From assembly GCF_053078305.1 (NCBI RefSeq), contig NZ_CP166878.1: 32,715 nucleotides of DNA; one strand, written 5' to 3'. This DNA comes from a plasmid. Position 1 is the first letter of the stretch, and every line of letters begins with the position of its first letter. The notes under the pieces are model-generated. The model did not search any database, had not been told where the DNA came from, and saw only the letters and a program-made list of their open reading frames with translations. The position numbers were made by a program, and so were the translations under genes. Of the stretch, positions 9,389 to 27,720 are shown piece after piece.

Positions 9389-9417
9389 TGTAGCGTTTAA
9401 CAGGCTATATCTTTAAT

Positions 9418-10419: not shown

Positions 10420-10428
10420 GGTGAACGT

Positions 10429-11148: not shown

Positions 11149-11160
11149 AGGAACTTAATC

Positions 11161-11994: not shown

Positions 11995-11996
11995 TT

Positions 11997-13875: not shown

Positions 13876-14096
13876 AGGAATGGTGTATGCGGATTATTTT
13901 TGTTGCTTTCCTGGCTATTGCAACGGTGATTCTTTGCTTATTTATGACGGGGTGTGCACAACGTTATGAGAGTGGTCATGATCAGCTTTTCGAACTGTCA
14001 GAACGCCATATCATTTACCGGGATCTGACTGTTCCGGCATCGATGAGCAATTTGCCGGAGAAGCAGCAGATAAGCGTACCGGGGATTGAGCCGTGA
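13872..14096 (+). CDS. Small lipoprotein (VirB7-like role)
   Basis: The 74-aa ORF has the lipobox LFMTGC and an ATGA overlap with the upstream gene. Its size and lipidation fit VirB7-type lipoproteins. Confidence 0.5.
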   Translation: MKEWCMRIIFVAFLAIATVILCLFMTGCAQRYESGHDQLFELSERHIIYRDLTVPASMSNLPEKQQISVPGIEP

Positions 14097-14770
14097 ACGT
14101 CCGGTTAATTTTCATGCTGGCGTTTCTGATATCTGGCGGTATCAGCGCATCAACGGATGAAGAAATTCTACTGGCGTCGATAACCGCGCCAGGAGTTACC
14201 AGCTTTACCGATGAATCACCTTCTTCGGAATGGATTACAGCGATGCAGGGACGTTGGGGGAGTACAACTGATATGAAGGATATGCGTAGTTTGCGCGAGA
14301 TAAGAGAAGCGGTGATTGCTGAAATTAATGCCGTATCAGAGCCGGTGGTGGAGAAAACAGGGCCAGAAAACAAAGAATCGACCACAGGAATAAAAATATC
14401 TGAAAAAATACAGGCGATAATCAATAAATACGCAGAAAAATATCAAATTAGTGAAACTTTGTTGAAAGCGTTAATTAAAACGGAGTCTGGATTTAATCCA
14501 AACGCTGTCAGCAGAAAAGGTGCAAAGGGACTGATGCAGTTAATGCCTGTACATACCAAAAGGCATAATGCTGATCCCTTTGATGTTGAAACCAATGTGA
14601 AAATTGGTACAGGGCATCTTTCATATCTTCTCGATAAATACGGGGATTTACGGCTTGCTCTGGCTGCATATAACGCTGGGGAAGGTGCTGTTGATAAATA
14701 TGGCGGTATCCCCCCTTATAAGGAAACACAACAGTATGTAAATAAGATCATGGCAATGTTAGGAGGTTAA
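14093..14770 (+). CDS. virB1: VirB1-like lytic transglycosylase (SLT domain)
   Basis: The ORF has a signal peptide and the SLT motifs IKTESGFNPNAVSRKGAKGLMQLMP and AAYNAGEGAV. It starts with GTG. Confidence 0.85.
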   Translation: MNVRLIFMLAFLISGGISASTDEEILLASITAPGVTSFTDESPSSEWITAMQGRWGSTTDMKDMRSLREIREAVIAEINAVSEPVVEKTGPENKESTTGIKISEKIQAIINKYAEKYQISETLLKALIKTESGFNPNAVSRKGAKGLMQLMPVHTKRHNADPFDVETNVKIGTGHLSYLLDKYGDLRLALAAYNAGEGAVDKYGGIPPYKETQQYVNKIMAMLGG

Positions 14771-14772
14771 AT

Positions 14773-15132
14773 ATGACAAAAATAAAGATACTGATATTTG
14801 CAGCTTTTGTCTCATTTGGAACCGTGCATAGCGCCAGCGCGGAAAATGGAAGTGATGCTCTGTCACTGACAGGAGAATTTCTTGAGCAACCTGTTAACAG
14901 TAGTGATCCATGTACTGTTTTTCTCTGTATGGCTGGAATGCTTAAGGGGGAATCGCCTGGTGAATGTAGTGGGGCAAAGAAAAAATTTTTCAGCATTATC
15001 AAAAGGAAGCATGGCAGTTTTCATCCAGGAAGAACATTTAATGCCCGGAAAGCGTTTCTTGGTGATTGTCCGTCAGCACCTGGAGATATTGTAGGCAAGA
15101 TACTTGATAAATACGGAAAATTACGCTGGTAA
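14773..15132 (+). CDS. TrbM-like periplasmic protein
   Basis: The ORF has a signal peptide. Its Cys pattern (C..FLCMAG...P.EC...KKFF.I...R..FL..CP) parallels the IncP TrbM pattern as I remember it. Confidence 0.55.
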   Translation: MTKIKILIFAAFVSFGTVHSASAENGSDALSLTGEFLEQPVNSSDPCTVFLCMAGMLKGESPGECSGAKKKFFSIIKRKHGSFHPGRTFNARKAFLGDCPSAPGDIVGKILDKYGKLRW

Positions 15133-15147
15133 CAGAAGGGGTAAACA

Positions 15148-15591
15148 GTGGCAAGAAAAGGTGTAAATGAAGTCACCCTAGTTGGTTTTGTTGGTAATGC
15201 TCCGGTGATATCTCAGGCCAGTAGCGGGGATAAGATCGCGGTTATTTCCGTTGCAACAACTGAAACATGGACGGACAGAAAGACAGGTGCTGAAAAAGAG
15301 AAAACCGAGTGGCATCGAGTTGTTATTTTCGGAAAAACAGCTGAGATAACGGAACAATATGTAAAAAAAGGCACATTGCTGTACATTCGCGGGAAACTGC
15401 AAACCCGTAAGTGGCTGGACCGAGACAATATAGAGCGTTACAGCACGGAAATTATTGTTAATCCGGCAGGGGGAGAAATGCAGATGCTGGGGAGTCGCCA
15501 GGATAAAGTAACCGGAGGAAAAGCCGGAAACGACATTCCTGAAAATGGCGCTGGCAGTACGGACAAGCAGCAAAGCAATGAAACCGACTAA
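15148..15591 (+). CDS. ssb: Single-stranded DNA-binding protein
   Basis: The OB-fold core closely matches E. coli SSB (VNEVTLVGFVG, TEWHRVVIFGK, YIRGKLQTRKW). The gene starts with GTG. The C-terminus ends in QQSNETD rather than the usual DDDIPF-type tip. Confidence 0.9.
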   Translation: MARKGVNEVTLVGFVGNAPVISQASSGDKIAVISVATTETWTDRKTGAEKEKTEWHRVVIFGKTAEITEQYVKKGTLLYIRGKLQTRKWLDRDNIERYSTEIIVNPAGGEMQMLGSRQDKVTGGKAGNDIPENGAGSTDKQQSNETD

Positions 15592-15613
15592 CGCGCCTTC
15601 GGCTTGTTCAACC

Positions 15614-15664
15614 CCGGAGTCACTCAGAAGCAAGTTCCGAGTGACCCCGGCGTTTTTGGTTTTT
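15614..15664 (+). terminator. Rho-independent terminator after ssb
   Basis: A stem (ccgg-a-gtcactc / gagtgac-c-ccgg) with one mismatch is followed by the T-rich tail gtttttggtttt. Confidence 0.65.
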
Positions 15665-15806
15665 ACTACGGGGATGATAATACCCATGAGGTTGATACTT
15701 GGCAGAGTCAGCTTGTGGGCATTATCAGGGGACTATAAAAGCCCATTTAAATTGTATTTAAATCATCCGGTAACGGCAAGAAAAATAATGTGTCATTCAG
15801 GCATAA

Positions 15807-16787
15807 GTGCAGGGCCATATGATTAGTCCGGCAATTGATTATTTTGCGGCAAACTTGCCATACCGACCTTATCACGCGAATGAATTGCTCTATGGGCTTC
15901 GTATCGATAAGGCAGCTAAAGCAGTGCTGGCGCGTTATATACAGCATAATCCACCTCATGCAATGTACTGGCTTGTTTTTGACGTTGACAGGCCAGTTGC
16001 GGCGATTGACTGGAATGATCTTAATGCGCCCACACCTAATTTTACGGTCAAAAATCCGGTTAATGGTCATGCACACCTGTTTTATGGGTTAAAAACGGCA
16101 GTTCGTGTTGCCAAAGACGGTAGCATTAAGGCGATCGAGTTTGCTGCTGCGGTAGAGCGAGGATTACGTGACAAACTTAAATCAGATATCGGCTATGCAG
16201 GGCTGATCTGTAAAAATCCTCTCCATACATGCTGGCAGGTTGTTGAATGGCGTGGAGAACTTTATGAGTTAGCTGAACTGGCTGATTATGTTGATTTGTA
16301 CGCGTCAACAGCGGCTAACGATGAACAGGCATTCGATATCGACTTTAGTTATGGGCTTGGGCGAAATTGTTGGCTCTTCAATCTGACCCGTATCTGGTCA
16401 TATACAGCAATCCGGCAGGGCTGGCCTGATTTCCCGCAATGGAAAGAAGCGGTGATTCAGCGTGTCGAAATGTATAACGTGCAGTTAAGCGTGCCTTTGT
16501 CTCACAAAGAATGTGTATGCATTGGCTCCAGCATCGCCAAATGGACGCATAGACGCTTCACTGAAGCTGGATTTGAGCAATATGTAGCTGATACCCATAC
16601 ATCAGAAATTCAGGCTCGTAGAGGGCGTAAGAATCGCTCAGAAGTGCAGGCTGCTAAGGGGCGTAAAGGTGGGAAAATATCTAAAAGAGGGATTGTTGAG
16701 GATTCTGCGCGGAGTTTGAAACCGTGGGTAGAGTTAGGGATCAGTCGGGCAACCTATTATCGACGTAGGGCAAATGAGACCAAATAA
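15807..16787 (+). CDS. rep: ColE2-type replication initiator (Replicase/primase family)
   Basis: Long stretches match my recollection of ColE2-P9 Rep: HALYWL.FDVD, NITVKNP.NGHAHL.Y, GLICKNP, AIRQGWP, VIQRVEMYN, SIAK.THR.F and SARSLKPW..LGISRATYYR. The ORF-track start is the GTG at 15807, and the ATG at 15819 is an alternative. Confidence 0.85.
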   Translation: MQGHMISPAIDYFAANLPYRPYHANELLYGLRIDKAAKAVLARYIQHNPPHAMYWLVFDVDRPVAAIDWNDLNAPTPNFTVKNPVNGHAHLFYGLKTAVRVAKDGSIKAIEFAAAVERGLRDKLKSDIGYAGLICKNPLHTCWQVVEWRGELYELAELADYVDLYASTAANDEQAFDIDFSYGLGRNCWLFNLTRIWSYTAIRQGWPDFPQWKEAVIQRVEMYNVQLSVPLSHKECVCIGSSIAKWTHRRFTEAGFEQYVADTHTSEIQARRGRKNRSEVQAAKGRKGGKISKRGIVEDSARSLKPWVELGISRATYYRRRANETK

Positions 16788-16812
16788 ACAACCTATATCA
16801 GATAACAGCACC
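16773..16812 (+). other. ColE2-type replication origin motif
   Basis: AATGAGACCAAATAAACAACCTATATCAGATAACAGCACC overlaps the rep 3' end. It resembles the ColE2 ori core as I recall it (..TGAGACCAGATAAGCCTTATCAGATAACAGCGCC..), and ColE2 places its ori directly after rep. Confidence 0.65.
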
Positions 16813-16994
16813 GGATCTTGATCCTTGCAGACAGATCCTTTGCCTTTAGTGATCTTCCGATTTTCAGGTATTGAGTCTTTTATGAGAGAGATGATAGCGC
16901 CCGCCGCAGCCCCAGCGACCGAACCGCCAGGTGAGCGAGTAGGCGAGGAGGCGCAAGGGAGTCAGAGGTTGATGTTTGCACTTACGCTCGATGT

Positions 16995-17291
16995 TTGAGC
17001 ACGGCAAGAAGACAAATGGAGAGTATGATGATGGTCTGTATACTTGTTGTGTCAAATAACGGTCGGGAAGAATTGATTGATTTTAATCCCGATCATGATT
17101 TAGCGCACATTATCAAATCATACCGGACACCAGAAAACAGGATGGTATGTATTATCCAGGATGGTAAGCGCATTCTTCGTTGGGATCGCAGTTATGCTTC
17201 CCGTGCAAAAAATCACTGGCGTAAGGTAGATCCAGACAGTTTTGAGATTTTAGGGTCTGTTGAATATCTCCGCTATGTTGGTCAGGGTTAG
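16995..17291 (+). CDS. Hypothetical protein
   Basis: This 98-aa ORF contains several internal Met codons, so the true start is uncertain. Its stop codon lies 2 bp before the Tn21-like inverted repeat at 17294. I recognise no family. Confidence 0.4.
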   Translation: MSTARRQMESMMMVCILVVSNNGREELIDFNPDHDLAHIIKSYRTPENRMVCIIQDGKRILRWDRSYASRAKNHWRKVDPDSFEILGSVEYLRYVGQG

Positions 17292-17293
17292 TT

Positions 17294-17327
17294 GGGGCGT
17301 TGAAAACGGAAAATAACCCACGCTAAG
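17294..17327 (+). repeat. Tn3-family (Tn21-like) terminal inverted repeat, outer end to the left
   Basis: GGGGCGTTGAAAACGGAAAATAACCCACGCTAAG resembles the Tn21/Tn501 inverted repeat (..CAGAAAACGGAAAATAAAGCACGCTAAG, recalled from memory). It has the family hallmarks of a GGGG start and a TAAG end. Confidence 0.7.
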
Positions 17328-17644
17328 ACTGTTTTTTAACCAGGCTATGATAATGCTATCTGTGACGGATGATGGTCGTTGCTCTTTTGTTAATGCTAAC
17401 GGATGCGTACATTAGCATTAACTTTTTGTGTTATGTTGCACGTGAATTTTTGAGTTTTAATATTTATATAATGTTATGAATATTAAAGATAAATGATGAA
17501 CATGCTTTGTGATGGCTTTTGGCGCATAGATTGATCTTAAGATCTGCGCATGTTATTTTTATGCGGTTTTGACGAATTTATAAGGGTAGGACGTTCCCGT
17601 AACAGCGTCCAGGGGAGGGGGTAGCGAATTTATAGCCCCCGGAA

Positions 17645-17727
17645 TGCAACAACCCCCTGATATCTCTCTTAGAGCTTTTGCGGGGCCAAAGAAGATAATC
17701 AGGGGGTCCAAAGCAGGCTTTTGCCTG
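17645..17727 (-). ncRNA. Predicted CopA/Inc-type antisense RNA controlling repA
   Basis: A minus-strand promoter reads TTGTAT (17761-17756), a 16-nt spacer, then TATAAT (17739-17734). The transcript would form a small hairpin (caggc/gcctg, 17713-17726). It would then form a long bulged hairpin closed by CCCCCTGAT/ATCAGGGGG (17653-17706), followed by the tail UUGUUGCAUU. It lies 55-130 nt upstream of repA, as in IncFII replicons. Confidence 0.55.
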
Positions 17728-17780
17728 TAAAGGATTATAGCAAATGCATTTTTCAATACAAGACTACTGCCCGGCAATAA

Positions 17781-18506
17781 GTGCGGGCGGTGGTGGCTGA
17801 AAAGAACAATTCCTTAATCCCCCGCATATCGCCGTCAGGGGTGGCCAAACAAAGTCCATGCTATAACGTTGTGTCGCGTAAGCGACGCCGTTTCCTCAAT
17901 CGCTGGATTAAATCGCTGGCGACGGTCGCTGGGCGTGTCAAAATCAAAAACGAACTCCGCCGCCGTATCCGGCATAACCGATATTGGGTTAATGAGGCTA
18001 ACAAGTTTGGCATAGAGGCACTTTGCGAACTGATGTTAGCTATCCTGGATGATCTCGATTTACGCTCCTGGGAAACCAGGCATAACCTCGAAACACTGGC
18101 AGAACGTGCCGGACTGGTGACACGCAGTGACGCGGGGCGTAAATCTATTTCCCGTGCCAGTAGGGGATGTGATCGCCTGGTCTGGTTGAATGCGATCATT
18201 ACAGATAAAGCGCCGTTTAACCCCTATGATGCACGGTGTGCCTGTAAACACATTGAAGTAACCGAAGACTTCTTTGCCATACTCGGCATTCCGTTAAAAC
18301 TGGTTTATCGGGAACGTGCCAGGCTGTTAAAGGCAGATCCTAATGAAATGATTTACTCCGGGGATGCCAGACTGATAGCTATCAGAGTCCAGAACTGGAC
18401 ACGGAAAGCGGCAGCCGGATTAGCCCGGATGAAAGCGAAACGCGACGCAGCTCGACAACGCAAAAAAGAATATTACGCTCACCCACCTACCCCTATTCCG
18501 GTCTGA
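17781..18506 (+). CDS. repA: IncFII-family replication initiator RepA
   Basis: ETLAERAGLVTRSDAGRKSISRASRGCDRLVWLNAIIT parallels R100/R1 RepA (TTLAIECGLATESGAGKLSITRATRALTFLSELGLIT, recalled from memory). The C-terminus is basic. The start codon (GTG at 17781) is uncertain. Confidence 0.8.
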   Translation: MRAVVAEKNNSLIPRISPSGVAKQSPCYNVVSRKRRRFLNRWIKSLATVAGRVKIKNELRRRIRHNRYWVNEANKFGIEALCELMLAILDDLDLRSWETRHNLETLAERAGLVTRSDAGRKSISRASRGCDRLVWLNAIITDKAPFNPYDARCACKHIEVTEDFFAILGIPLKLVYRERARLLKADPNEMIYSGDARLIAIRVQNWTRKAAAGLARMKAKRDAARQRKKEYYAHPPTPIPV

Positions 18507-18578
18507 TACAGGCTAACTTACCGCCTTATGGGGCGGTGTATCGCCACGTCCATAATAAAAAGCTGTACAAAAAATAGT

Positions 18579-18613
18579 CTTGGCGTGGGTTATTTTCCGT
18601 TTTCCATGCTCAG
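18579..18613 (-). repeat. Tn21-like inverted-repeat core, inverted partner of 17294-17327
   Basis: The reverse complement reads CTGAGCATGGAAAACGGAAAATAACCCACGCCAAG. The 26-nt core matches the left copy with one mismatch, and the similarity continues a further 10 nt inward. The outer GGGG is missing. Confidence 0.6.
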
Positions 18614-18659
18614 AAAAGAGCAGTTATAAGCTGTATCATTGGGTAAACAATGCACAGGT

Positions 18660-18668
18660 TGTGGATAA
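18660..18668 (-). promoter_or_regulatory. Consensus DnaA box (TTATCCACA), probable start of the IncFII-type origin
   Basis: TGTGGATAA on the plus strand is a 9/9 match to the consensus. It lies 154 bp after the repA stop codon, which is the spacing expected for an R1-type oriR. Confidence 0.55.
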
Positions 18669-18705
18669 TCATACTTAAAGTGCAAACGATATGCCGCAAT
18701 TACTC

Positions 18706-18750
18706 TTTTGCTTCTCTTTTAGTTACTTACGTACTAAAAGAGAAGCAAAA
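18706..18750. repeat. Perfect 18-bp inverted repeat (45-nt hairpin/cruciform)
   Basis: TTTTGCTTCTCTTTTAGT (18706-18723) pairs with ACTAAAAGAGAAGCAAAA (18733-18750). Two further pairs are possible inside the 9-nt spacer. Confidence 0.85.
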
Positions 18751-18899
18751 AAGAAAAACATTACTGTTATCCCCTTTAACAAGTGAATAACCTAAAAACA
18801 TCGGCGCAAGCGCCTCAAAAGTAGCACCCCTCGCAAGCTCGGGGCATTAGAAACAACAGCATCCCATCATCACAATCGAACTATTATTCATCTATCTTC

Positions 18900-19093
18900 G
18901 CTGTAACATCGACGGTCTACGACCACCTACCACCTGAATAGCTGTAGGTTCCGTGCGGTCAGGCTTAGCAGGAGGCTGACGCGGTTCCTGGCGACATGAA
19001 ACTCCCTAGTTAGGGGTATCGGCGCGACCTGGCATCTGTGACTCTATAAAGCCATTTTTCGCGCCTTCCATGCCGCTAAAGCGGCATATTCCA
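18900..19093 (+). repeat. 194-bp dispersed non-coding repeat, copy C
   Basis: It differs from copy A at 3 positions (cttagcaggagg and ccctagtt). One of these creates an in-frame stop in the minus-strand ORF that copies A and B appear to carry. Confidence 0.9.
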
Positions 19094-19187
19094 TAAGAAT
19101 TTACATGAGCGTATACTTTATAATCAGTATCAATGAAAGTTGCTTGTCCAAATCAGGGGCAACAATCGCATCAAATAACTTGCGCAG

Positions 19188-19505
19188 GTGAAAATTATGG
19201 AGACTTTCGATACAGATAAATTTCGCTCAGAACTGGATCTTTTATCAAAAAAGATCATGCCTGGTTGTGGTCTTGTTTTTGAGCTGTATCAACGTCGTTT
19301 GAGCGCTGCGATTGATGAATTTGTCGCCAGATTGCCGAAAGAACAACATGCTCAGGCGTTTGAACTGGCTCGCCAGGAGTTTGATTATCTTTCTGCAGAA
19401 GAGATTGCAGATGAAATACGCCGAGACGCAGAAAAAGGCTATTGTTGCCACGGCATTGATCGCGATTGCTGCCCTCTTGGTTGCGGTGATTTAGATGATT
19501 ATTAA
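19188..19505 (+). CDS. Hypothetical acidic protein with a Cys-rich C-terminus
   Basis: The 105-aa ORF has many D/E residues and ends in GYCCHGIDRDCCPLGCGDLDDY. It lies 95 bp downstream of repeat copy C. The ATG at 19197 is the more likely start. Confidence 0.5.
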   Translation: MKIMETFDTDKFRSELDLLSKKIMPGCGLVFELYQRRLSAAIDEFVARLPKEQHAQAFELARQEFDYLSAEEIADEIRRDAEKGYCCHGIDRDCCPLGCGDLDDY

Positions 19506-19570
19506 TTTAAAGGGATAAATATATTTACATACTGAAAATATAGGCTGTTTTTTTCTGGTGAAGAGGAAAA

Positions 19571-20221
19571 ATGATGGTTAATTCAAAAAAATTTGTGATA
19601 ATTGCGTTAAGTTCATTATTGTTGGCAGGGTGTGACTCATCGAAGGATGCCAATAAAGCAAACTTTGAAAAAGCGATTAATACGAAACTTGAGAAGGAAT
19701 GCATTACAATCAGTCCTCTTGGGAGGTTTGATAGTAAGCCTTATCCAGTTCAATTATCTGTCGCCCAAACTAATCGATATACATCTCAGGAACAGGCAGA
19801 CGAAATAAATACCAAAGAGTTTTCCATGTTTGATGCACTGGTTAAAGCTGGTTTATTGACAGTAAAAGATACCCTAGTTGATGAAACTATCGGATTTTCT
19901 AAAACAGGTAAAAAAGTGCCTGGGCGTGAATATGCTCTGACAGAGAATGGGAAAAAATATCTGAAATCTCCAGAGCGCCCTGATTTCTGTATTGGTCATT
20001 ATAAGGTTGATGAGATCATTGATTTTACTGAACCTGGTGATGCGATGGGAATGAAAATAACAAGGGTCAATTACACATTCAGTCCTACGAATATTGCTGA
20101 ATGGGCAAAGAGCGATGATATTCAGGCAGCATTTCCACTTCTTAAGTTTAATTTGAAAGAGAAACAGAAAAACCGTCTATCTCTGGTTTTGAAAAATGAT
20201 GGATGGTCCGCTGAACGATAG
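19571..20221 (+). CDS. Lipoprotein of unknown function
   Basis: The ORF has a signal peptide with the lipobox LLLAGC and a GAGG ribosome-binding site upstream. I recognise no family. Confidence 0.65.
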   Translation: MMVNSKKFVIIALSSLLLAGCDSSKDANKANFEKAINTKLEKECITISPLGRFDSKPYPVQLSVAQTNRYTSQEQADEINTKEFSMFDALVKAGLLTVKDTLVDETIGFSKTGKKVPGREYALTENGKKYLKSPERPDFCIGHYKVDEIIDFTEPGDAMGMKITRVNYTFSPTNIAEWAKSDDIQAAFPLLKFNLKEKQKNRLSLVLKNDGWSAER

Positions 20222-20339
20222 GTAGATAAATGACGTTGCTACGTGGTCTCCCTCTTTTGCTGATTTCACGTAGCACTCTCACTCTGCCGCTACTTCTCGT
20301 TATTCTGAACAGATGATTGAAAAATAAGGAGAATCAAAT

Positions 20340-20374
20340 AATCTCTTGATTTTATAATCCTATGATTATAAGAT
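20340..20374 (+). promoter_or_regulatory. Recurrent promoter/operator cassette, copy 1
   Basis: The box AATCTCTTGATT contains the -35 hexamer TTGATT. A 17-nt spacer and TAAGAT follow. The cassette is homologous to 23918-23952 and to the parA upstream boxes. Confidence 0.5.
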
Positions 20375-20388
20375 TGTTGTGTATGAGT

Positions 20389-20410
20389 GTTTGGATAGAG
20401 AATTATTGTA
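20389..20410 (+). repeat. Junction motif GTTTGGATA(TA)GAGAATTATTGTA, copy 1
   Basis: GTTTGGATAGAGAATTATTGTA lacks the TA dinucleotide present in the other two copies. It lies in the leader of the 20432 gene. Confidence 0.7.
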
Positions 20411-20431
20411 ATCAAGTGGGAGATATTATTT

Positions 20432-20920
20432 ATGAATAATTTACGTGATAAAAAATCAAATCCTGTTATTACATTAATTGTTGTTGTTATTTCTTTATTC
20501 CTCCTTCCTGCAATCGTCGCGGGACTAGGAACTATGGGAGTGATTTACATTGATGGTCTGCGAGAATTACCGTCTTTTTGTATAAAGGCAATAAGTGTAG
20601 CAATCTGGATGCTTGTAGTTGCATACCTGATGTGTCGTATCATGAAAGCTAAGAAAGATTTTATTCGCTTACCTGCAAAACTGACGCTTATTGGAGCAGT
20701 TCTCTTGCCTCTGATAAGCAGTTTTAATAATGTAGTGACTACTATGTCATCTCCAGATGTTTCCACCAGAACAGACTTTCATGCAGCACTTATAAAAGGT
20801 CTGGACACAATGGAAAGTGAATTTATGTTTATAGTACCTGCTTTATTATGTGCAATAGCTTCCATTATGCTGGCTGTTGGAATGATAAATATTTTACGTA
20901 ATCGTTATATGGGGCGCTAA
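20432..20920 (+). CDS. Integral membrane protein (about 4 transmembrane helices), unknown function
   Basis: The 162-aa ORF has four long hydrophobic segments and lies downstream of the recurrent promoter cassette. Confidence 0.6.
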   Translation: MNNLRDKKSNPVITLIVVVISLFLLPAIVAGLGTMGVIYIDGLRELPSFCIKAISVAIWMLVVAYLMCRIMKAKKDFIRLPAKLTLIGAVLLPLISSFNNVVTTMSSPDVSTRTDFHAALIKGLDTMESEFMFIVPALLCAIASIMLAVGMINILRNRYMGR

Positions 20921-20965
20921 TCTGATGTGCGGTGATTGTGAGGTTGATTATAGAAGGGATTTAAT

Positions 20966-21124
20966 GTGGAACTGATAACAGATAATTTTTTTGAGTGGGT
21001 GGTGGCTCTCGCTATTTTGAATTTTATCGTCACGTTGAAATCTAAAGAGAAAATAACTTTGTTGTTAACGACGATAATTAGCCTACTTATTGCTTCAATT
21101 ATATTGAGGGCAGTTTGGATATAG
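20966..21124 (+). CDS. Possible 52-aa two-helix membrane peptide
   Basis: It is absent from the ORF track because it is under 60 aa. The GTG start is preceded by an AAGGGA ribosome-binding site, and there are two hydrophobic stretches. Its last codons (GCA GTT TGG ATA TAG) lie inside junction-motif copy 2. Confidence 0.3.
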   Translation: MELITDNFFEWVVALAILNFIVTLKSKEKITLLLTTIISLLIASIILRAVWI

Positions 21125-21134
21125 AGAATTTTAC
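21113..21134 (+). repeat. Junction motif, copy 2
   Basis: GTTTGGATATAGAGAATTTTAC. The similarity to copy 3 also extends about 10 bp to the left (tattgagggca versus tattggggtca). Confidence 0.7.
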
Positions 21135-21211
21135 AAAATGAACTGTGCTATTTATCAATATCATTGATAAACACACTCTAATAATCACTCTTTACAGGAA
21201 ATGTACTCACT

Positions 21212-21529
21212 ATGATTATTAATCGAGAAAAATTTGAAATTATCAGAAAAATCATTCATGACACTCTGCTGGGTAATATTGCGCTCGTCGTTATTGCATT
21301 AATGTCTCCGGTTCTGTTAGATAAAATAGCGGAGCCTTTTAATATTATTATAGCTTCCGCCATGTCGATTTCCTTTATATTTATTCTTTGCTGGCTGGCT
21401 TCTTCAATCTGGTTGTACGCAGGAGAACTTGCGAAAAATAAAAGTTTAAGATGTACTCTTTTTATACTATGGGCACTGAGTGCTGAGGGTTCAATTATTT
21501 TAACTGCGAGAGATATTATTTTATGGTAA
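21212..21529 (+). CDS. Small integral membrane protein (3 transmembrane helices), unknown function
   Basis: The 105-aa ORF has three hydrophobic segments. I recognise no family. Confidence 0.55.
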   Translation: MIINREKFEIIRKIIHDTLLGNIALVVIALMSPVLLDKIAEPFNIIIASAMSISFIFILCWLASSIWLYAGELAKNKSLRCTLFILWALSAEGSIILTARDIILW

Positions 21530-21622
21530 TGATCGTGGCGCGATTGCCAGCGAGCTAGGGGTTCCGTGGGAATTTCTGCGATAGGGGTTTGAAGCCCAAC
21601 CGTACGAAAACGTACGCTAAGT

Positions 21623-21862
21623 TCATTTCTTGAACAACCTGGCTGACTCTATGTATTTGTACAGCGTTGGCCTCGATATCCCCATCAACACACAAATCTG
21701 CGCAACGGTATGTTTTTTCTCGTTATAGAGTTGAACAGCAAGGGCCTGTTTATCCTTACTCAGTGTTTTCGGCCTGCCGCCCTTACGTCCTCTGGCTCGT
21801 GCTGCTTGAAGCCCGGCCTGAGTTCTCTGGGGGGTCGCGCCCATTTCCTCTAAAAGTCTCAC
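21623..21862 (-). pseudogene. tnpR: Serine recombinase (resolvase) fragment, C-terminal HTH part only
   Basis: AGLQAARARGRKGGRPKTLSKDK...ICVLMGISRPTLYKYI is the linker and HTH domain of a resolvase. The roughly 100-aa catalytic N-terminal domain is missing. The stop codon lies 1 bp from the 38-bp inverted repeat. Confidence 0.75.
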
Positions 21863-21885
21863 CTTGCTTAGGTAATTAATTGAAT

Positions 21886-22085
21886 TTATTTATAAAACAT
21901 TGCAATTTTAGCATCATTTTTTATTGTTCTTTTTAACCTGAAGTACGTCGATCGAGAGATACCTGTTTTTTCTGTCACACTGCCCAGAGATTCTCCCTGT
22001 GATATAAGCTCCAACGCTGTAGGCGTTCGTGGATGCTTCTTCCTGCCAAATTTTACGCCTGCGGCAAGTGCCGCTATTGGGGTCA
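21886..22085 (-). pseudogene. Second serine recombinase C-terminal fragment
   Basis: I translated the minus strand by hand: ..PIAALAAGVKFGRKKHPRTPTALELISQGESLGSVTEKTGISRSTYFRLKRT.. followed by a stop. There is no start codon, and the frame is cut exactly at junction-motif copy 3. Confidence 0.6.
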
Positions 22086-22109
22086 GTTTGGATATAGAGA
22101 ATTATTGTA
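22086..22109 (+). repeat. Junction motif, copy 3
   Basis: GTTTGGATATAGAGAATTATTGTA marks the point where the second recombinase fragment is truncated. Confidence 0.7.
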
Positions 22110-22404
22110 CGGCAAGCCTGTTTTTTGAACAGACTTACCTATCGCGATAGGGTGTACTCCCGTGCTATACGGCGTTTTCAGGGGCTTTGGCCTTAATCGG
22201 ATAACCTAAATGCGACATAGCAAGAGCGATAACTTAAAGGCGATAGCCGCTGATGTTAAATCAATACGTTAGAATCTTAAATTGATTAAATAATGCGCTT
22301 AACGTACAAAAATTTCCGTTTCCCAAACCGCCCCCATATTGTACGTTTCCCTAACCGACCCCTTACTGGTCGCGGAAAAATCCAGGTTTCCGGCCTGGAA
22401 CCCC

Positions 22405-22536
22405 TATACAATCACTTGATTCGATAATTATAAAATTAAGTGATTTTATGATTGCATGATTCTATGAGCATGGGATTATTAGAATGTTTGGCAGAGGTAC
22501 TATGTGAACAAAGGGGAGGGGAAAATGCCTAAAGTT
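22405..22536 (+). repeat. Orphan duplicate of the parA promoter/operator and first parA codons
   Basis: This 132 bp aligns without gaps to 24844-24975, with about 10 substitutions. It includes the inverted-repeat operator, the ribosome-binding site and ATG CCT AAA GTT, after which the sequence diverges. Confidence 0.85.
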
Positions 22537-22614
22537 GGAGCAGCGGGAGCGTTCGAACAGAGACTTACGGTTTCGTTCTTTGTGCAGCAGTTGAAACCGT
22601 AATTATTTGTTTTA

Positions 22615-22865
22615 GGGGTTTGAGGCTCAGTGGAACAATAACCGCCGTTAAGCGGTCATTTTAAATAGCCAAAAATCAACCAGCCAATTTACATCGTGAA
22701 TCTGCGTTCTTGGCTATCTGTTTTGGGGGGCCAAGTTGGCTTTACTCATCCTGGCCGTTTGCGGAACAAAAGACGTTGTTGATCTCAACAGATTGATTAA
22801 CCTGTTATTGACCATTCAATTGAACCGCTTAACCGCCTTTTGAGTTCCACTACTCCCCAAACCCC
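22615..22865. mobile_element. Miniature Tn3-derived element (TIME-like), 251 bp, with target-site duplication
   Basis: The 38-bp ends are GGGGTTTGAGGCTCAGTGGAACAATAACCGCCGTTAAG (22615-22652) and, read as reverse complement, GGGGTTTGGGGAGTAGTGGAACTCAAAAGGCGGTTAAG (22828-22865). The first 22 nt resemble the Tn3 inverted repeat as I recall it. An identical 5-bp flank, TTTTA, lies at 22610-22614 and 22866-22870. There is no ORF. Confidence 0.8.
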
Positions 22866-22882
22866 TTTTATGCCAAGTAGAA

Positions 22883-23091
22883 GGGGTTTGAGGGCCAACC
22901 GTACGAAAACGTACGGTAAGAGGAAAATTATCGTCTTAAAAATCGATTAGTAGACAATGCCGTCCGTTAAGTGCCAATTTTCGATTAAAAAGACACCGTT
23001 TTGATGGCGTTTTTCTATGTCCATTATGTTTTGATATATCAGACAGTTACTTCACTAACGTACGTTTTCGTTCCATTGGACTTCAGCCCCC
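22883..23091. mobile_element. Miniature Tn3-derived element carrying res-like sites, 209 bp, with target-site duplication
   Basis: The ends are GGGGTTTGAGGGCCAACCGTACGAAAACGTACGGTAAG (22883-22920) and, read as reverse complement, GGGGGCTGAAGTCCAATGGAACGAAAACGTACGTTAGTG (23053-23091). The 5-bp flank TAGAA lies at 22878-22882 and 23092-23096. The interior has TGTC..GACA-type res-like subsites, for example TGTCCATTATGTTTTGATATATCAGACA at 23018-23045. Confidence 0.8.
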
Positions 23092-23111
23092 TAGAATACG
23101 TCAGATGTGTT

Positions 23112-23333
23112 CTACCTAGATTGTAGAGACTGAATTAGTGCTTCTACTGCCCAATCAGGACAGGTTCTGGAGCTTGGTTTATCCGGGTCATTAATCCAGG
23201 AACGGATAGTTCTTACAGAGCATGGTCGGTGAGTGTATTCACAAATTAGGTTCGCGGCTTGCGCCTGGGTTAACCCGTTATCAGTCAGTAACGTTATAAA
23301 TGCGGCACGGTTATCTGACACTATAAACCCCAT
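23112..23333 (-). CDS. Small HTH-type DNA-binding protein
   Basis: The 73-aa ORF has an HTH-like segment, NGLTQAQAANLICEYTHRPCSVRTIRSWIN. It overlaps the 3' end of the upstream membrane-protein gene by 23 nt. Confidence 0.55.
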   Translation of the reverse strand: MGFIVSDNRAAFITLLTDNGLTQAQAANLICEYTHRPCSVRTIRSWINDPDKPSSRTCPDWAVEALIQSLQSR

Positions 23334-23805
23334 CTTTTTTGAACGTAATGCTAACCTGCCCTTCTGTCGGAACCTCCATTACTTCCCGGATCTTTTTATT
23401 TATGGCAATTTCGGTAGCGCTCACAAAGATCGGAATCCCTTTTGCCGCTATGCTGATAGCTACGGCAATAACCGTCAAAGCAATACAGTAGTATGTTATT
23501 ACTCTAATAATTTCAGCTATATTCTCAGAGGGGGAGTTTCTTAGAAATGTTATTAAATGTATTAATTCTGCTTGATGATAAATAGAATAAAACATAATAG
23601 AGGCAATAAATATTGCGAAACCATGAACAAAATAATGCCAGAGTTTAAGGGGTATTCTCCAAGCAAATCCAATGTAACTGAAAACTGAAGCCACATGAGT
23701 TCTCCAGTCTTTTTTTACTGATTTAACTATTTCTTCATATTGTGATATTGGCATTGAGCCGACTTCAATATTATTGACTTTAACTATCGCTATGCCCTCT
23801 TGCAT
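23311..23805 (-). CDS. Integral membrane protein, unknown function
   Basis: I prefer the ATG at 23805, which has an AAGGAGAA ribosome-binding site 7 nt upstream, over the ORF-track start at 23898. The protein has a soluble N-terminal part and then at least three hydrophobic helices. Confidence 0.55.
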   Translation of the reverse strand: MQEGIAIVKVNNIEVGSMPISQYEEIVKSVKKDWRTHVASVFSYIGFAWRIPLKLWHYFVHGFAIFIASIMFYSIYHQAELIHLITFLRNSPSENIAEIIRVITYYCIALTVIAVAISIAAKGIPIFVSATEIAINKKIREVMEVPTEGQVSITFKKDGVYSVR

Positions 23806-23917
23806 GACTTTGTTCTCCTTCTGCCATGATAAAAGATCTTGTTTTACATACCATGATAGGCACATGTGCCTGTTTGGTGCAACATGCTTTACAAACATAA
23901 GAATAATAAAAGGATAT

Positions 23918-23952
23918 AATCCCTTGATTTTGTAATCATATGATTATATGAT
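23918..23952 (+). promoter_or_regulatory. Recurrent promoter/operator cassette, copy 2
   Basis: The box AATCCCTTGATT contains the -35 hexamer TTGATT. A 17-nt spacer and TATGAT follow. About 60 bp aligns with 20340-20400. Confidence 0.5.
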
Positions 23953-23985
23953 TGTTTTTGAGCGTGAATTATTCAGGAGGGAGTT

Positions 23986-24261
23986 ATGAGCCAGTATCGT
24001 TTAACAGGAAAATCAGCATCGCGTAGTTATGAACTTCTGGTTGGCTGGGATACCCCGCTTTCCAGGTTTTTTCTTGTTATTGAGCCAGAACTTGACGAGC
24101 CGGTATATTCGAATATTTATGAGAAAGATCCATCATCTTTGACGCTTGAGTTTTTTCAGTCAGTTCTTGAACGTTACGGGATAGAGAATGTATCTCTGCT
24201 GCCTGGTCATGAGTCAGGTTTGTATGAGAAATTGCATGATGATAGAAGAAATAATAACTAG
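23986..24261 (+). CDS. Hypothetical protein
   Basis: The 91-aa ORF has a GGAGG ribosome-binding site and lies downstream of promoter cassette copy 2. I recognise no family. Confidence 0.55.
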   Translation: MSQYRLTGKSASRSYELLVGWDTPLSRFFLVIEPELDEPVYSNIYEKDPSSLTLEFFQSVLERYGIENVSLLPGHESGLYEKLHDDRRNNN

Positions 24262-24293
24262 CGGTTTTTAATGGAATATGCAGGAATATTGCG

Positions 24294-24644
24294 ATGAAAA
24301 TAAAACTAGGGTCAGGTTCGGTATCTGTAAATGGTGTTGTGTATGAAGGAAAGGGGAAAATTATTTCCATATTAAATAATGAAGTCATTATTGATGGTGT
24401 CGTTCATGGGAAAGCCGTAGCTCTTCCTGAAATTACTGTTATTGTTAATGGTCATGTTGATTCATTACATACCGAGTTGGGAAATATAATCATTAATGGT
24501 AATGCTGGTATGGTTAAAACTGCATCGGGGGATGTTTCTTGTGAAAATGTTTCAGGAAATGTTGAGTCTATGAGTGGTAATGTTAATTGTAAAAATGTTT
24601 ATGGTGGAGTTAAAACATTATCTGGAAACATATATAAAGAATGA
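24294..24644 (+). CDS. Bactofilin-like beta-helical repeat protein (putative)
   Basis: The 116-aa ORF has Gly/Val/Asn-rich repeats of about 9-11 residues (GDVSCENVSGNVESMSGNVNCKNVYGGVKTLSGNI). These resemble bactofilin/DUF583 windings. The assignment rests on the pattern only. Confidence 0.45.
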   Translation: MKIKLGSGSVSVNGVVYEGKGKIISILNNEVIIDGVVHGKAVALPEITVIVNGHVDSLHTELGNIIINGNAGMVKTASGDVSCENVSGNVESMSGNVNCKNVYGGVKTLSGNIYKE

Positions 24645-24843
24645 GTTCATTAAAACCCCGTACAATATATTGTACGGGGGTAGTACAGAAGAGGTATTGG
24701 GTTGCTACATTTCCAGGTTATATGCAGAAACCATTTTTATTTTATCAGGTATTTATTTTTTCTTAATGAGATAGTTCACAAAATCATCAATCCAGGGACT
24801 GTTTTTCGTTATCTGCCGTATCTGCGTACCCCTGATTTTTTGG

Positions 24844-24942
24844 TATACAATCACTTGATTCGATAATCATAAAATCAAGTGATTTTATGATTGCATAATT
24901 TTATGAGTATGAGATTATTAGAATGTTTGGCAGAGGTACTAT
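24844..24942 (+). promoter_or_regulatory. parA promoter/operator region with a 12-bp inverted repeat
   Basis: AATCACTTGATT (24849-24860) and AATCAAGTGATT (24873-24884) are perfect inverted repeats separated by 12 bp. Repeated ATGATT/TATGAG motifs follow. Confidence 0.55.
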
Positions 24943-24963
24943 GTGAACAAAGGGGAGGGGCAA

Positions 24964-25587
24964 ATGCCTAAAGTTATAGCATTTTTAAATGGTAAGGGGG
25001 GGGTGTCTAAGACAACCTCGGCAGTCAATATTGCTACTGCTCTTGCTCGTAAGGGATACAAAGTTGTCGTTGTGGATACCGATCCTCAGGGAAGTGTTAG
25101 TAACTGGTATGATGACAGTAAGTGTGTTTTTGATGTAGCAGAAGCTACGACAGAAAAAGAAATTTACCGTTTGCGGAAGGCGCTTCCTTTGCACGATTTT
25201 ATCATTATTGATGGTGCTGCGGCGATTTCGGCGATATCGGCAGCTGCTGTTATGGTTTCTGATCTTGTCATTATCCCAGTTACTCCTTCGCCGCTTGATT
25301 TTGCTGCATGTGGCGCGATATTGGCAGTGATAGAAGCTCGGCAGGATTTACGCCCGGTGATTGCTCGCTTTTTGATTACTAAAAAAGTACAGCAAACGCA
25401 TATGCTATCTTTGCTGAAAGAATCTATTGCAGAAACAAGCATACCAGCATTAAAAACAGGAACGTCGTACAGGCAGTCATATATAAAGTCTATGCTAGAT
25501 GGTGGTACTATATTTGATACAAAAGATAGTGCTGCTAAAGGTGAAATATCAGTCATTACAGAAGAAATACTTGGACTATTAAAATGA
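24964..25587 (+). CDS. parA: ParA-family partition ATPase (small, type Ib-like)
   Basis: The ORF has the deviant Walker A motif [16 protein letters not shown], followed by [11 protein letters not shown] and IIIDGAAA. The ATG at 24964 has a GGAGGGG ribosome-binding site. The ORF track begins at the GTG at 24943. Confidence 0.9.
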
Positions 25588-25793
25588 GTAAAATGAAACT
25601 TGGGAATCATAAGGCAACAAACACCGCTCTGGATGCACTAAAGAAACCTGCTGGAGCAACCAGGAAATTACAAATGAATATTCCAGAAGAGTTACACCTT
25701 GCATTTAAGTTAGCTTGTGTGGAAGATGGTGTCGATATGACACAGGTAAATATAGAACTAATTCAAAACTGGTTGAAGAGTCGTAACTTATAG
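25584..25793 (+). CDS. ParG-like ribbon-helix-helix centromere-binding protein
   Basis: The 69-aa ORF has an ATGA overlap with parA. It has a flexible basic N-terminus followed by [37 protein letters not shown], which is a typical RHH layout. Confidence 0.65.
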
Positions 25794-25821: not shown

Positions 25822-26313
25822 ATGGAGTATACACCAATAGCGTTAAGTCCAGGAGCTATGTTGCATAAAGGGAAATTCATTGGTTATGTCATGAAGATCA
25901 GATTTTCCGAGTGTTCTGGAGATCATCTTTTTTATTTGAGATATGATATGGTTGTTGAACTTGCAAGAGCATTAGCAAGAAAAACACACCAGATGTATCT
26001 TAAAGGGACTTTTAGTACAGATGAAAGTAGTCAGGCTACGTTAGAAATGGAAAAGGATTATAAGCAGCATGATATTCATTTAACAAGTGATGAAATATCG
26101 TCACCATCTGTAAATAACTTTGTTGCATTGTTAGATTATAATGTAAGGGATGCATCATTATTATTATCACTAATCAAAAATGATAATTCTAAAATTGATA
26201 TTAGTATACCAGAAGCAGCGGTGGAAATATTTACAGGTTATATGATGAATACTGTTATTAAGGCAGGGGGAGAAGCTTTATCTGAAAAACTTATATCAGA
26301 TATTGGAGTTTAA
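25822..26313 (+). CDS. Hypothetical protein (third gene of the par transcription unit)
   Basis: The 163-aa ORF has a GGAGG ribosome-binding site and starts 28 bp after the parG-like gene. I recognise no family. Confidence 0.5.
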   Translation: MEYTPIALSPGAMLHKGKFIGYVMKIRFSECSGDHLFYLRYDMVVELARALARKTHQMYLKGTFSTDESSQATLEMEKDYKQHDIHLTSDEISSPSVNNFVALLDYNVRDASLLLSLIKNDNSKIDISIPEAAVEIFTGYMMNTVIKAGGEALSEKLISDIGV

Positions 26314-26458: not shown

Positions 26459-26737
26459 TCAACCCTTTATAGACGAAGTGAAGTCAGACCACTGTTCAAT
26501 CCTGAATGCTCTGATATCCCTGACTGAATTTGGGAACCATTCAAGAGCTTTTAATGCGTTCATAGCCTGAAAAAGGTTTGCCATATTTTCATCGCTATTT
26601 GTGTACAGGCTTCCCTGGATTCGCTCAAATCCGTACCTTTTAAGGGTCGAACTTATATCGTTGTAAGCCTGTGACACGCCTTTCGGATGGTGTTTTTCTG
26701 TATCTGCAACGGTTAAATCAAATGATATTGCGTACAT
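26459..26737 (-). CDS. vapD: VapD (Cas2-like endoribonuclease)
   Basis: MYAISFDL...HHPKGVSQAYNDI...GSLYTN...MANLFQAMNALKALEWF..SVRDIRAFRIEQWSDFT closely matches VapD sequences as I recall them. Confidence 0.85.
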   Translation of the reverse strand: MYAISFDLTVADTEKHHPKGVSQAYNDISSTLKRYGFERIQGSLYTNSDENMANLFQAMNALKALEWFPNSVRDIRAFRIEQWSDFTSSIKG

Positions 26738-26740
26738 AAC

Positions 26741-27031
26741 TTACTCTGCATCAGGATCTTGTAATAGTTTTGAAAGTTTGTACAACTCTTTCTCACCTGT
26801 CTGAACCAGTATAATGTTGACAAGAATATCACCATCAGGTAGTTCTTGGGCTGGCTCTCCTACCTCGTAAGGAATACCAAGCAGCCCGAATGTCTTAATC
26901 GTACCTGTTGGAATTTGCACTGTATTCATTGTTTTCGCTCCGATTTCCAGCCTCATCTTATCAGTCATAGCTTTGATAATAGCCTGACTGTCAGGTGACT
27001 GGGCCGCAATTACTTCTTCTAATGTTCTCAT
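26741..27031 (-). CDS. Hypothetical protein in the VapX position
   Basis: The 96-aa ORF ends 3 bp before vapD starts. Its N-terminal 30 aa (RTLEEVIAAQSPDSQAIIKAMTDKMRLEIG) resemble the N-terminus of the upstream XRE protein, but it has no HTH. Confidence 0.55.
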   Translation of the reverse strand: MRTLEEVIAAQSPDSQAIIKAMTDKMRLEIGAKTMNTVQIPTGTIKTFGLLGIPYEVGEPAQELPDGDILVNIILVQTGEKELYKLSKLLQDPDAE

Positions 27032-27049
27032 CTGTTGATGCCCAATTTT

Positions 27050-27349
27050 TTACAGGTGGAAAGCCATACGCTTGCCTGTAGGCAATGTCACGTCCAGGCT
27101 TAACTCGCCGCCCAAAGCTTTTACATAACGTTTAAGCGTCGATATTCTCGGATCGTTGTCAGTTTGCTCCATCCTGGCAACTGATGGTTGTTTTACTCCC
27201 ATCATTGTAGCCAGTTCGGTTTGGGATATGTTCAGTTCATCACGTAAAGCACTAAGTGCGAGCTGAATGCTGGCTTTTTCAACTCGGTCGGCTACGTGCG
27301 CCTGCATTTCAGGACTCTCTTTAGCCAGTAGTTCTCTGTAGGTAGCCAT
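27050..27349 (-). CDS. XRE-family HTH protein (HigA-like antitoxin/regulator)
   Basis: The HTH segment is ISQTELATMMGVKQPSVARMEQ and the C-terminus is KRYVKALGGELSLDV. I prefer the ATG at 27349, which has a GGAGAA ribosome-binding site, over the ORF-track start at 27400. Confidence 0.75.
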   Translation of the reverse strand: MATYRELLAKESPEMQAHVADRVEKASIQLALSALRDELNISQTELATMMGVKQPSVARMEQTDNDPRISTLKRYVKALGGELSLDVTLPTGKRMAFHL

Positions 27350-27720
27350 GTTATTTCTCCAGTTTTGCAAGATGTTCACGGTATTCATTATATACTGCAT
27401 TATAACGAATACACTATAATTTCCAGAAGAACAGGGCTATTTAACATAATGGACGTTATCAGCACCACCGGATCACAGTTCGTTGTCAGATCTGAAAAAT
27501 CCGCTCAAAAGATCATGTTTTCCTGGGCGTTTTTCGTCGTTTTTTATGTTGCTTATTTGTTAATAAAATCTCGTTTCTTGTTTTGGCTGAATTTGGATGT
27601 GAAAGCCTTATATTTGCAAGTTATCCGGTGAAGGGAGGTAGCCGAGACTGAGGATTGATTGTTTTGTACAAGTTCTAATGCATAATGTGTACATATAGTA
27701 GCGTTAGCATAGGGCGTAGT

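Follow-up and report, generated by a model that had tools for sequence, protein, structure and literature searches.

Introduction

By its components, the locus described here is closest to the parFGH partition system of plasmid TP228; by its logic, it is closest to the omega system of the Inc18 plasmids. In TP228, the sites of the ribbon-helix-helix (RHH) protein ParG are degenerate 5'-ACTC-3' boxes that are direct or inverted and always set apart by 4-bp AT-rich spacers, and each box takes up one dimer (PMC3130281, PMC3413123). Eight boxes make up the operator OF and 12 the centromere parH (PMC3130281). ParG homologs with other ribbons go with other tetramers, in the same layout upstream of their parF (PMC3130281, PMC3413123). 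The DNA considered here is a stretch of 32,715 nucleotides from a plasmid (NCBI RefSeq assembly GCF_053078305.1, contig NZ_CP166878.1), referred to below as the window. Within it, arrays of 5'-AATC-3'/5'-GATT-3' boxes are found upstream of a parA-parG operon and of two neighboring transcription units. These arrays are probably the binding sites of the plasmid's own ParG homolog, which would tie the three adjacent transcription units to the partition protein.

Other designs help to situate this arrangement. The omega protein (ParB) of the Inc18 plasmid pSM19035 is also an RHH centromere binder, and its arrays lie over several promoters (copS, delta, and omega), serving as both operator and centromere (PMC9499535). 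Its repeats are direct or inverted, and at least four contiguous ones are functional (PMC9499535). However, omega belongs to another protein family and reads contiguous 7-bp WATCACW heptads instead of 4+4-bp units, while it works in a Gram-positive host, with copy-number control among its targets. In the ArdK/CUP system of IncN (pKM101/R46) and IncW (R388) plasmids, one repressor serves a promoter-operator module repeated before several small genes (PMC6289460, PMC9723621). A preliminary description of the window, made from the sequence alone, drew an analogy with these upstream cassettes. This stands as a concept only, as the regulator ArdK is a KorA-family helix-turn-helix (HTH) protein and its operator consists of two TTGACA direct repeats beside the -35 hexamer (PMC9723621). 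The ArdK targets are leading-region establishment genes spread over the plasmid, whereas the candidate regulator here is a partition protein of the RHH type, with its sites grouped by par. KorB, the ParB protein of the IncP plasmid RK2, combines partition with the repression of several promoters. It is an HTH ParB that acts at a distance from 13-bp palindromic OB sites placed around the plasmid, and is unrelated in both sequence and site design.

Architecture of the arrays

The window is a member of a family of E. coli plasmids of about 30 kb. Its best relatives are CP088859, NZ_CP054365, NZ_CP045281, and NZ_CP045715, in which positions 1-20000 of the window are covered to 97-100% at 98-99% identity. 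The 12-mer AATCnCTTGATT corresponds to two boxes within a longer array, and the true unit is a 4-bp box, 5'-AATC-3'/5'-GATT-3', plus a 4-bp AT-rich spacer, repeated in a strict 8-bp register. The sequence AATCNCTTGATT occurs exactly at 20340, 22410, 23918, and 24849 on the plus strand and at 24873 on the minus strand, and with one mismatch at 22434 (minus strand); the preliminary description had placed the box correctly at all six of these positions. When up to one mismatch is allowed, there are seven matches for 1.29 expected, and none of 100 shuffles reaches seven. The seventh match, at 17898 inside repA, looks like chance.

A repeat search puts the copies in register at multiples of 8 bp. 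The same register emerges from a scan for chains of AATC/GATT boxes at fixed spacing (periods 5 to 12, with 300 first-order Markov shuffles as the control). Window-wide, arrays of at least four boxes are present at 20332-20375 (array 1, six boxes), 23918-23953 (array 2, five boxes), and 24849-24892 (array 3, six boxes), as well as in an orphan copy at 22442-22477. Array 3 then extends as degenerate boxes to 24924. Chains of at least four boxes never appear in the 300 shuffles, nor in the window at periods 5-7 and 9-12. Box-N4-box pairs are similarly concentrated, with 17 of the 18 in the window lying inside the arrays (about 4.4 expected by chance), and the spacers are 80-83% AT as compared to 58.6% for the window as a whole. 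All of the boxes are exact in arrays 1 (6/6) and 2 (5/5), as are seven of ten in array 3 and six of ten in the orphan.

The unit consensus, from a position weight matrix (PWM) of 21 slots, is WTGATTnT, in agreement with the ATGATT-type repeats that had been reported to follow the box; the embedded TTGATT -35 hexamer that had also been reported is indeed present in arrays 1 and 2. Apart from one unrelated-looking tandem array, TTATATGC, which is discussed below, no further copies were found in the 32.7-kb window by the 12-mer search, the box-pair counts, the periodic chain scan, or the PWM scan. In the latter, nothing else in the window rises above the shuffle maximum. An Rfam scan finds nothing at the arrays, and its sole match is the PK-repBA element upstream of repA. 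Omega-like 7-bp heptads were also considered, with AATCACT first taken as WATCACW, but these were ruled out because the register is 8 bp and not 7.

Between arrays 1 and 2, which had been said to align over about 60 bp, identity is 90% across 41 nt, with weaker similarity further out. In a MAFFT alignment, both arrays match the promoter-proximal half of array 3 slot for slot, and on into the leader (TGTTTGG.AGAG). Since the alignment continues into the leader, the cassettes are paralogs rather than convergent motifs. All three transcription units are co-oriented, and three relatives (L001, L004, and L005) each have exactly three live arrays in the same places. The cluster spans 4.6 kb here and about 2.3 kb in these relatives. 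The idea of shared promoter/operator modules under one repressor is in keeping with paralogous copies, for which a single plasmid-encoded repressor would be the best explanation. Its proposed scope was too wide, however: all of the sites are in one par-adjacent cluster, with nothing comparable in the other ~28 kb, so the term "plasmid-wide regulon" is an overstatement. Likewise, the four loci initially counted come down to three live ones plus one relic lying among Tn3-family inverted repeats.

A leader-like motif, GTTTGGAT(A)TAGAGAATT, is found past array 1 (20388-20412), at the end of a 52-aa open reading frame (ORF) (21102-21130), and in the mosaic region described below (22075-22103). A diverged form is seen downstream of array 3 (24922-24948). 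This motif may mark module boundaries or a shared 5' leader.

The par operon and its ParG homolog

The ATPase encoded after array 3 is a close homolog of TP228 ParF (PDB 4dzz), which it matches over residues 3-205 of its 207 residues (241 bits, E 5.6e-71), while its score against the NCBIfam family ParA_partition is just under the cutoff (173 bits for a cutoff of 180). The 69-aa protein that follows belongs to the Pfam family ParG (PF09274; 44.6 bits, cutoff 21.4). At E <= 0.01, its only Pfam families are ParG and RHH_10, with no omega family. It also matches the structure of ParG (PDB 1p94) over residues 3-66 (E 3.1e-7). In this alignment, the predicted ribbon RKLQMNIP is opposite KRVNVNFD of TP228 ParG, so the base-contacting ribbon positions 2, 4, and 6 are K, Q, and N here, and R, N, and N in TP228. 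With a ParF-like ATPase, a ParG-family RHH protein encoded directly downstream, and an 8-bp box array upstream, the locus matches the TP228 ParF/ParG type (type Ib) in its genes and in the layout of its sites. A YjeJ-like gene is probably the third gene of the operon.

Array 3 has ten slots in an exact 8-bp register, with spacers that are 80% AT, and the inverted 12-mer pair seen initially corresponds to slots 1-2 and 4-5. Two candidate promoters can be read in it (Table 1), and one of these, GTGATT-17-TATGAG, is paralogous to the promoters of arrays 1 and 2. Array 3 is the predicted par operator and probably also the centromere.

The resemblance to TP228 includes a ParF-like ATPase, a ParG-family RHH protein, and the same gene order (PMC3130281, PMC3413123). 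It extends to the sites, with 4-bp boxes and 4-bp AT-rich spacers in mixed orientation lying over the promoter immediately upstream of the ATPase gene. The differences are threefold. TP228 has an ACTC box and the ribbon KRVNVNFD, whereas here the box is AATC/GATT and the ribbon RKLQMNIP; there is no separate uniform parH array upstream of the operator here; and two extra arrays lie on non-par promoters 0.9 and 4.5 kb upstream (~2.2 kb in the relatives). In the literature searched, no such extra arrays on non-par promoters are described for TP228.

Comparison with distant ParG loci

The binder of the boxes can be approached through 14 distant par loci, four of them from PLSDB (pEP36 of Erwinia pyrifoliae and plasmids of Providencia, Serratia, and Arsenophonus) and ten from a scan of one genome per species. 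Their ParG homologs come from Erwinia, Providencia, Serratia, Arsenophonus, and Rosenbergiella, and are 52-63% identical to that of the window. All 14 loci have AATC/GATT boxes in an 8-bp register beside parA-parG, for instance GATTACAT x16, GATTCTGG x10, and arrays of mixed orientation directly 5' of parA. In all 14 ParG homologs the ribbon is (R/K)KLQxN(I/M)(P/D), i.e., of the xKLQxNxx type. This co-occurrence of the GATT box with the xKLQxNxx ribbon is strong indirect evidence in favor of ParG as the likely binder. In addition, of the proteins in the window's cluster, a tblastn profile detects none but ParA and ParG in the distant loci. To our knowledge, ParA-type ATPases do not read specific sequences, which leaves ParG as the only consistent candidate. 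The ParG-like RHH protein was one of the two repressors suggested in the preliminary description, and as a candidate it fits every comparative test. For the ribbon-to-tetramer code proposed by the Hayes laboratory, this would be a new entry, pairing K, Q, and N with GATT where R, N, and N go with ACTC. It also yields an annotation rule for operators and centromeres of the ParG clade, namely GATT/AATC boxes every 8 bp.

The flanks scanned for arrays reached up to 10 kb per side for the ten scan loci and 2.5 kb for three of the PLSDB loci, while pEP36 was scanned whole. No array away from par was found in this sequence; in the ten scan loci, the arrays lie up to about 1.6 kb upstream of the parG start or up to about 0.3 kb after it. 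Several arrays per locus are nonetheless common. In pEP36, one array of ten boxes is distal and another of five is proximal; in Providencia, parFG is flanked by arrays on both sides; and Erwinia has four to five arrays with different spacers. The dedicated centromere-like arrays of these relatives are long, uniform direct tandem repeats in gene-free DNA, and the ORFs listed within them are repeat artefacts. The array nearest parA, on the other hand, is of mixed orientation. Some of the uniform 8-bp arrays are very long (up to 18 units), and some flank the operon on both sides (L009, 33402-33485; L010, 2358-2481 and 3419-3558; L020, 8415-9347). Such long-array par loci, from Erwinia, Providencia, and others, are a ready data set for working out the ribbon-to-box and spacer code.

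The arrays on candidate non-par promoters and their genes

Array 1 ends 56 nt before the ATG of the 162-aa gene (20432), and array 2 ends 32 nt before that of the 91-aa gene (23986). Both of these ORFs have Shine-Dalgarno sequences. By position, the two arrays cover candidate -35/-10 hexamers of non-par genes, which would be an omega-like trait. Because they are mixed in orientation, cover the -35/-10 region, and have genes directly downstream, they are read here as OF-type operators.

The close homologs of the 162-aa and 91-aa genes are themselves linked to par. The 162-aa protein matches no family in Pfam or NCBIfam, and its homologs (72% amino-acid identity) are confined to IncX3-type plasmids and a few others. 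In IncX3, the gene takes third place in a parA/RHH operon and begins 25 nt past the RHH gene. The closest homologs of the 91-aa protein (61-62%) are in pKPC_CAV1392 and pYUSHP29-3 (L006 and L007), where they come after parA and a small RHH-like gene. There, they are preceded not by 8-bp GATT arrays but by clusters of those plasmids' own par-region repeats, of the GGAATCC/GGATTCC type. The GGAATCC-type repeat is also present between parA and the RHH-like gene, and related copies are upstream of parA. Since these two plasmids carry their own par repeat at that place, the site before the 91-aa gene family changes with the resident par system. The par linkage of the 162-aa and 91-aa families is thus real without being universal, as it concerns close homologs only, and it flags these two small gene families as recurrent companions of type Ib par operons. 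From the shared leader, two origins can be envisaged for arrays 1 and 2: the par promoter may have been duplicated, or an ancestral array-parA-parG-gene3 operon may have lost parA-parG.

The 116-aa protein encoded after the 91-aa gene has an all-beta AlphaFold2 model (predicted local distance difference test, pLDDT, 82). No significant PDB match was found for this model, and in Pfam there is only a sub-threshold similarity to DUF4097. It had been called bactofilin-like, a label that is not supported (the match to bactofilin has E 6.4 and a TM-score of about 0.2). In Serratia plasmids, its homologs are in tra regions and not near par. Homologs are variously labelled DUF342, phage tail protein, or tail-associated lysozyme.

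The orphan copy and the mosaic insertion

The orphan copy consists of the par promoter and about five parA codons, followed by unrelated sequence, and it is not present in the relatives. Most likely it is what remains of another par locus; ParG could still bind to it, although at most the copy would titrate the protein. In this sense, it shows the stranding of a par promoter in progress. It is part of a rearranged mosaic insertion, 21562-23893 when compared to CP088859, with a junction at 23894. The divergence of array 2 from a membrane/HTH operon, which had been taken as part of the arrangement, is an accident of this insertion.

The insertion also holds the genes of that operon, which encode 195-aa and 73-aa proteins. 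This pair was not found in the close relatives, nor in collections of plasmids and of complete E. coli genomes. Its nearest homologs (71% nucleotide identity) come after a mobC-relaxase operon in a Serratia plasmid. For the 195-aa ORF (23311-23898, minus strand), the probable start is the internal Met32 (~23805), with AAGGAG 5' of it, and the Serratia homolog is 164 aa long. Among the miniature elements bounded by inverted repeats, the one at 22614-22866 recurs in some 1,400 genome records of E. coli.

Proposed model and alternative readings

In the proposed model, one dimer of the RHH protein ParG would bind each 4-bp AATC/GATT box, as in TP228 with ACTC, and dimers at an 8-bp distance would cooperate over the AT-rich spacers between them, thereby coating the array. 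Array 3 would be the autoregulatory operator and probably the centromere, the counterpart of OF/parH in TP228. As arrays 1 and 2 cover the -35/-10 regions, the same ParG coat would silence the 162-aa unit and the 91-aa/116-aa unit along with parA-parG-yjeJ. Three consecutive co-oriented transcription units would in this way come under a single partition protein. Arrays 1 and 2 may also add to the partition complex, because they have five to six contiguous boxes; the three live arrays have 21 slots in total, near the 20 boxes of TP228. In TP228, OF by itself is active as a centromere. Here, the binding of ParG, the activity and repression of the promoters, and the centromere role are all predicted from sequence. 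If they hold, the TP228 model of ParG, in which it autoregulates only parFG, would be extended to a small regulon, and this would be a Gram-negative, ParG-family counterpart of the Inc18 omega design. Our literature search found no description of ParG control of promoters other than that of parFG. The scope is modest, since it covers one plasmid family and a mechanism of a known kind. A bolder version, which we see as speculative and rather doubtful, would make the ParG-type protein of this E. coli plasmid family an omega-like local master regulator with a distributed centromere, a design not reported for the ParF/ParG family. The 162-, 91-, and 116-aa proteins would then be accessory factors, so far overlooked, in type Ib partition or in the establishment of the plasmid, and the distant ATGCTTAT array possibly a remote low-affinity parH-type centromere.

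Several observations weigh against ParG control of arrays 1 and 2. A promoter scan of the region shows no enrichment (13 sites, 15.6 expected), and only four of six positions match in the candidate -10 of array 1 (TAAGAT). The close relatives are 96-100% identical, too alike for a test of selective constraint on boxes versus spacers. Distant homologs of the 91-aa and 162-aa proteins, in IncX4, IncHI2, and pECL_B, have no par linkage. Since the arrays of the 14 distant loci are only beside par, control of non-par promoters is without precedent in the ParG clade, and the non-par arrays could be a by-product of promoter duplication.

Given how often ParG-clade par loci have several arrays (pEP36, Providencia, Erwinia), arrays 1 and 2 might instead be mainly extra centromere sites of the parH kind, contributing to a larger or distributed partition complex, with only incidental effects on genes. 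The numbers would allow this: TP228 has 20 boxes, of which about eight are needed for efficient centromere function (PMC3130281), and in pSM19035 four contiguous repeats are enough for ParA activation (PMC9499535), while array 3 alone has seven exact boxes and the three arrays together reach the 21 slots mentioned above. However, the dedicated centromeres of the relatives are uniform direct tandem repeats in gene-free DNA, whereas arrays 1 and 2 are mixed in orientation, like the parA-proximal operator arrays, and they overlap -35/-10 hexamers 32-56 nt upstream of ORFs. It is therefore unlikely that they act mainly as centromeres, and in any case the two roles are not exclusive, as the OF of TP228 and the omega sites do both.

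Arrays 1 and 2 could also be the leftovers of duplicated or truncated par promoters, now acting as constitutive promoters or doing nothing, without any selected control by ParG. The orphan shows that fragments of the par promoter do get stranded in this plasmid, the shared par leader fits a deletion of parA-parG from an array-parA-parG-gene3 operon (the IncX3 arrangement), and remote arrays are seen in none of the other 14 ParG-clade loci over the flanks scanned. Yet while the known relic has decayed to six exact boxes in ten, every box of arrays 1 and 2 is exact and their register is free of indels. Both arrays are kept in all of the relatives examined, and where the 162-aa coding sequence has drifted to 88% identity, the cassette is still at 97%. 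This makes mere leftovers distinctly improbable, and with intact boxes and ParG present, binding would be expected whether or not it is selected.

It is very improbable that some other regulator binds the boxes, and the phyletic pattern largely refutes it. The candidates would be the 73-aa HTH protein named second in the preliminary description (encoded ~0.6 kb from array 2, with weak, sub-threshold HTH_3 similarity, E 0.023), a further plasmid protein, or a repressor of the ArdK/KorA type; the plasmid does have an ORF to which the IncN CUP name CcgAII is attached. Against this, L001, L004, and L005 keep three arrays without the 73-aa and 195-aa genes, which sit in the inserted segment and whose Serratia homologs follow a mobC-relaxase operon and not par; nothing but ParA and ParG is common to the window and the distant loci that have the same kind of array; an ArdK operator consists of a pair of TTGACA direct repeats by the -35 and not of 8-bp tetramer arrays (PMC9723621); and no KorA/ArdK-like domain was found among 30 ORFs scanned against Pfam, a subset of the ORFs searched without an ArdK query.

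Other elements of the plasmid

The plasmid family encodes a VirB-like type IV secretion system, TrbM, ssb, ccdAB, and the parA-parG operon. There are two replication genes in the family, one with a PK-repBA control element. The features of the window are listed in Table 1.

Table 1. Arrays, candidate promoters, genes, and other features of the window
Feature	Position	Strand	Details
Array 1	20332-20375	+	Six exact boxes: AATC, AATC, GATT, AATC, GATT, GATT; spacers 83% AT
Candidate sigma-70 promoter in array 1	20346-20351 (-35), 20369-20374 (-10)	+	TTGATT, 17-nt spacer, TAAGAT; read from sequence
162-aa predicted membrane protein gene	20432-20920	+	First gene after array 1
Small ORFs	20966-21124, 21212-21529	+	3' of 162-aa gene
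Array 2	23918-23953	+	Five exact boxes: AATC, GATT, AATC, GATT, GATT; spacers 80% AT
Candidate promoter in array 2	23924-23929 (-35), 23947-23952 (-10)	+	TTGATT, 17-nt spacer, TATGAT; promoter scan
91-aa protein gene	23986-24261	+	No family
116-aa all-beta protein gene	24294-24644	+	
Array 3	24849-24924	+	Slots: AATC, GATT, AATC, AATC, GATT, GATT, AATT (degenerate), GAGT (degenerate), GATT, GAAT (degenerate)
Array 3 candidate promoter	24840-24867	+	TTGGTA-16-GATAAT; promoter scan
Array 3 candidate promoter (alternative)	24879-24907	+	GTGATT-17-TATGAG
parA, 207-aa small Walker ATPase	24964-25587	+	
parG, 69-aa RHH protein	25584-25793	+	4-nt overlap with parA
163-aa YjeJ-like protein gene	25822-26313	+	28 nt past parG
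Orphan par promoter/operator	22405-22542	+	Ten slots at 22410-22485, six exact; 93% identical to 24844-24981
Tn3-family inverted repeats	21583, 22614, 22882; 23056		Copy at 23056 on minus strand
Miniature elements bounded by inverted repeats	22614-22866, 22882-23093		
Resolvase fragment	21623-21862	-	
8-bp tandem array TTATATGC	2998-3083		x10.8, perfect; L004 26094-26169, L005 30021-30090; PWM scan
Second replication module	15807-16787		Separate Replicase-family Rep gene
IncFII-type RepA with PK-repBA pseudoknot element 5'	17651-17778		Rfam, 86 bits

The TTATATGC array sits between the gene for a VirB11-like ATPase and the first copy of a 194-nt repeat. Read as ATGCTTAT, it is one base off the ParG unit consensus ATGATTAT, and it resembles the uniform parH-type arrays of the relatives. 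Its copy number varies among plasmids in which ParG and the ribbon of CcdA are unchanged, and so does the unit itself: in a covariation test of the array as a CcdA or ParG site, it becomes TCATATGC in L005.

The ~194-nt repeat is GC-rich and present in three co-oriented copies (3106-3299, 3962-4155, and 18900-19093) that are 91-98% identical. These are upstream of ccdAB, of the start of the type IV secretion gene block, and of an ORF annotated CcgAII in a relative. The element is also found at 80-90% identity in about 580 plasmid records, mostly tiny cryptic E. coli plasmids of 1.4-1.9 kb, where it is unannotated. Frpo-like single-strand hairpins were considered and rejected, as folding is just slightly better than in shuffles (z about -2 on either strand). 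The repeat may be an ssi/priming site, an oriT-like element, or a CUP-like module, and the label of repeated upstream cassette fits it more literally than it does the AATC/GATT arrays.

Finally, downstream of the par operon and on the minus strand (26459-27400), genes for a Cas2-like/VapD-like 92-aa protein, a DUF5397 protein, and an HTH_3 protein stand in a row. This trio is a probable toxin-antitoxin-like module, and in some relatives a RelE/ParE-HTH pair is found at its position.

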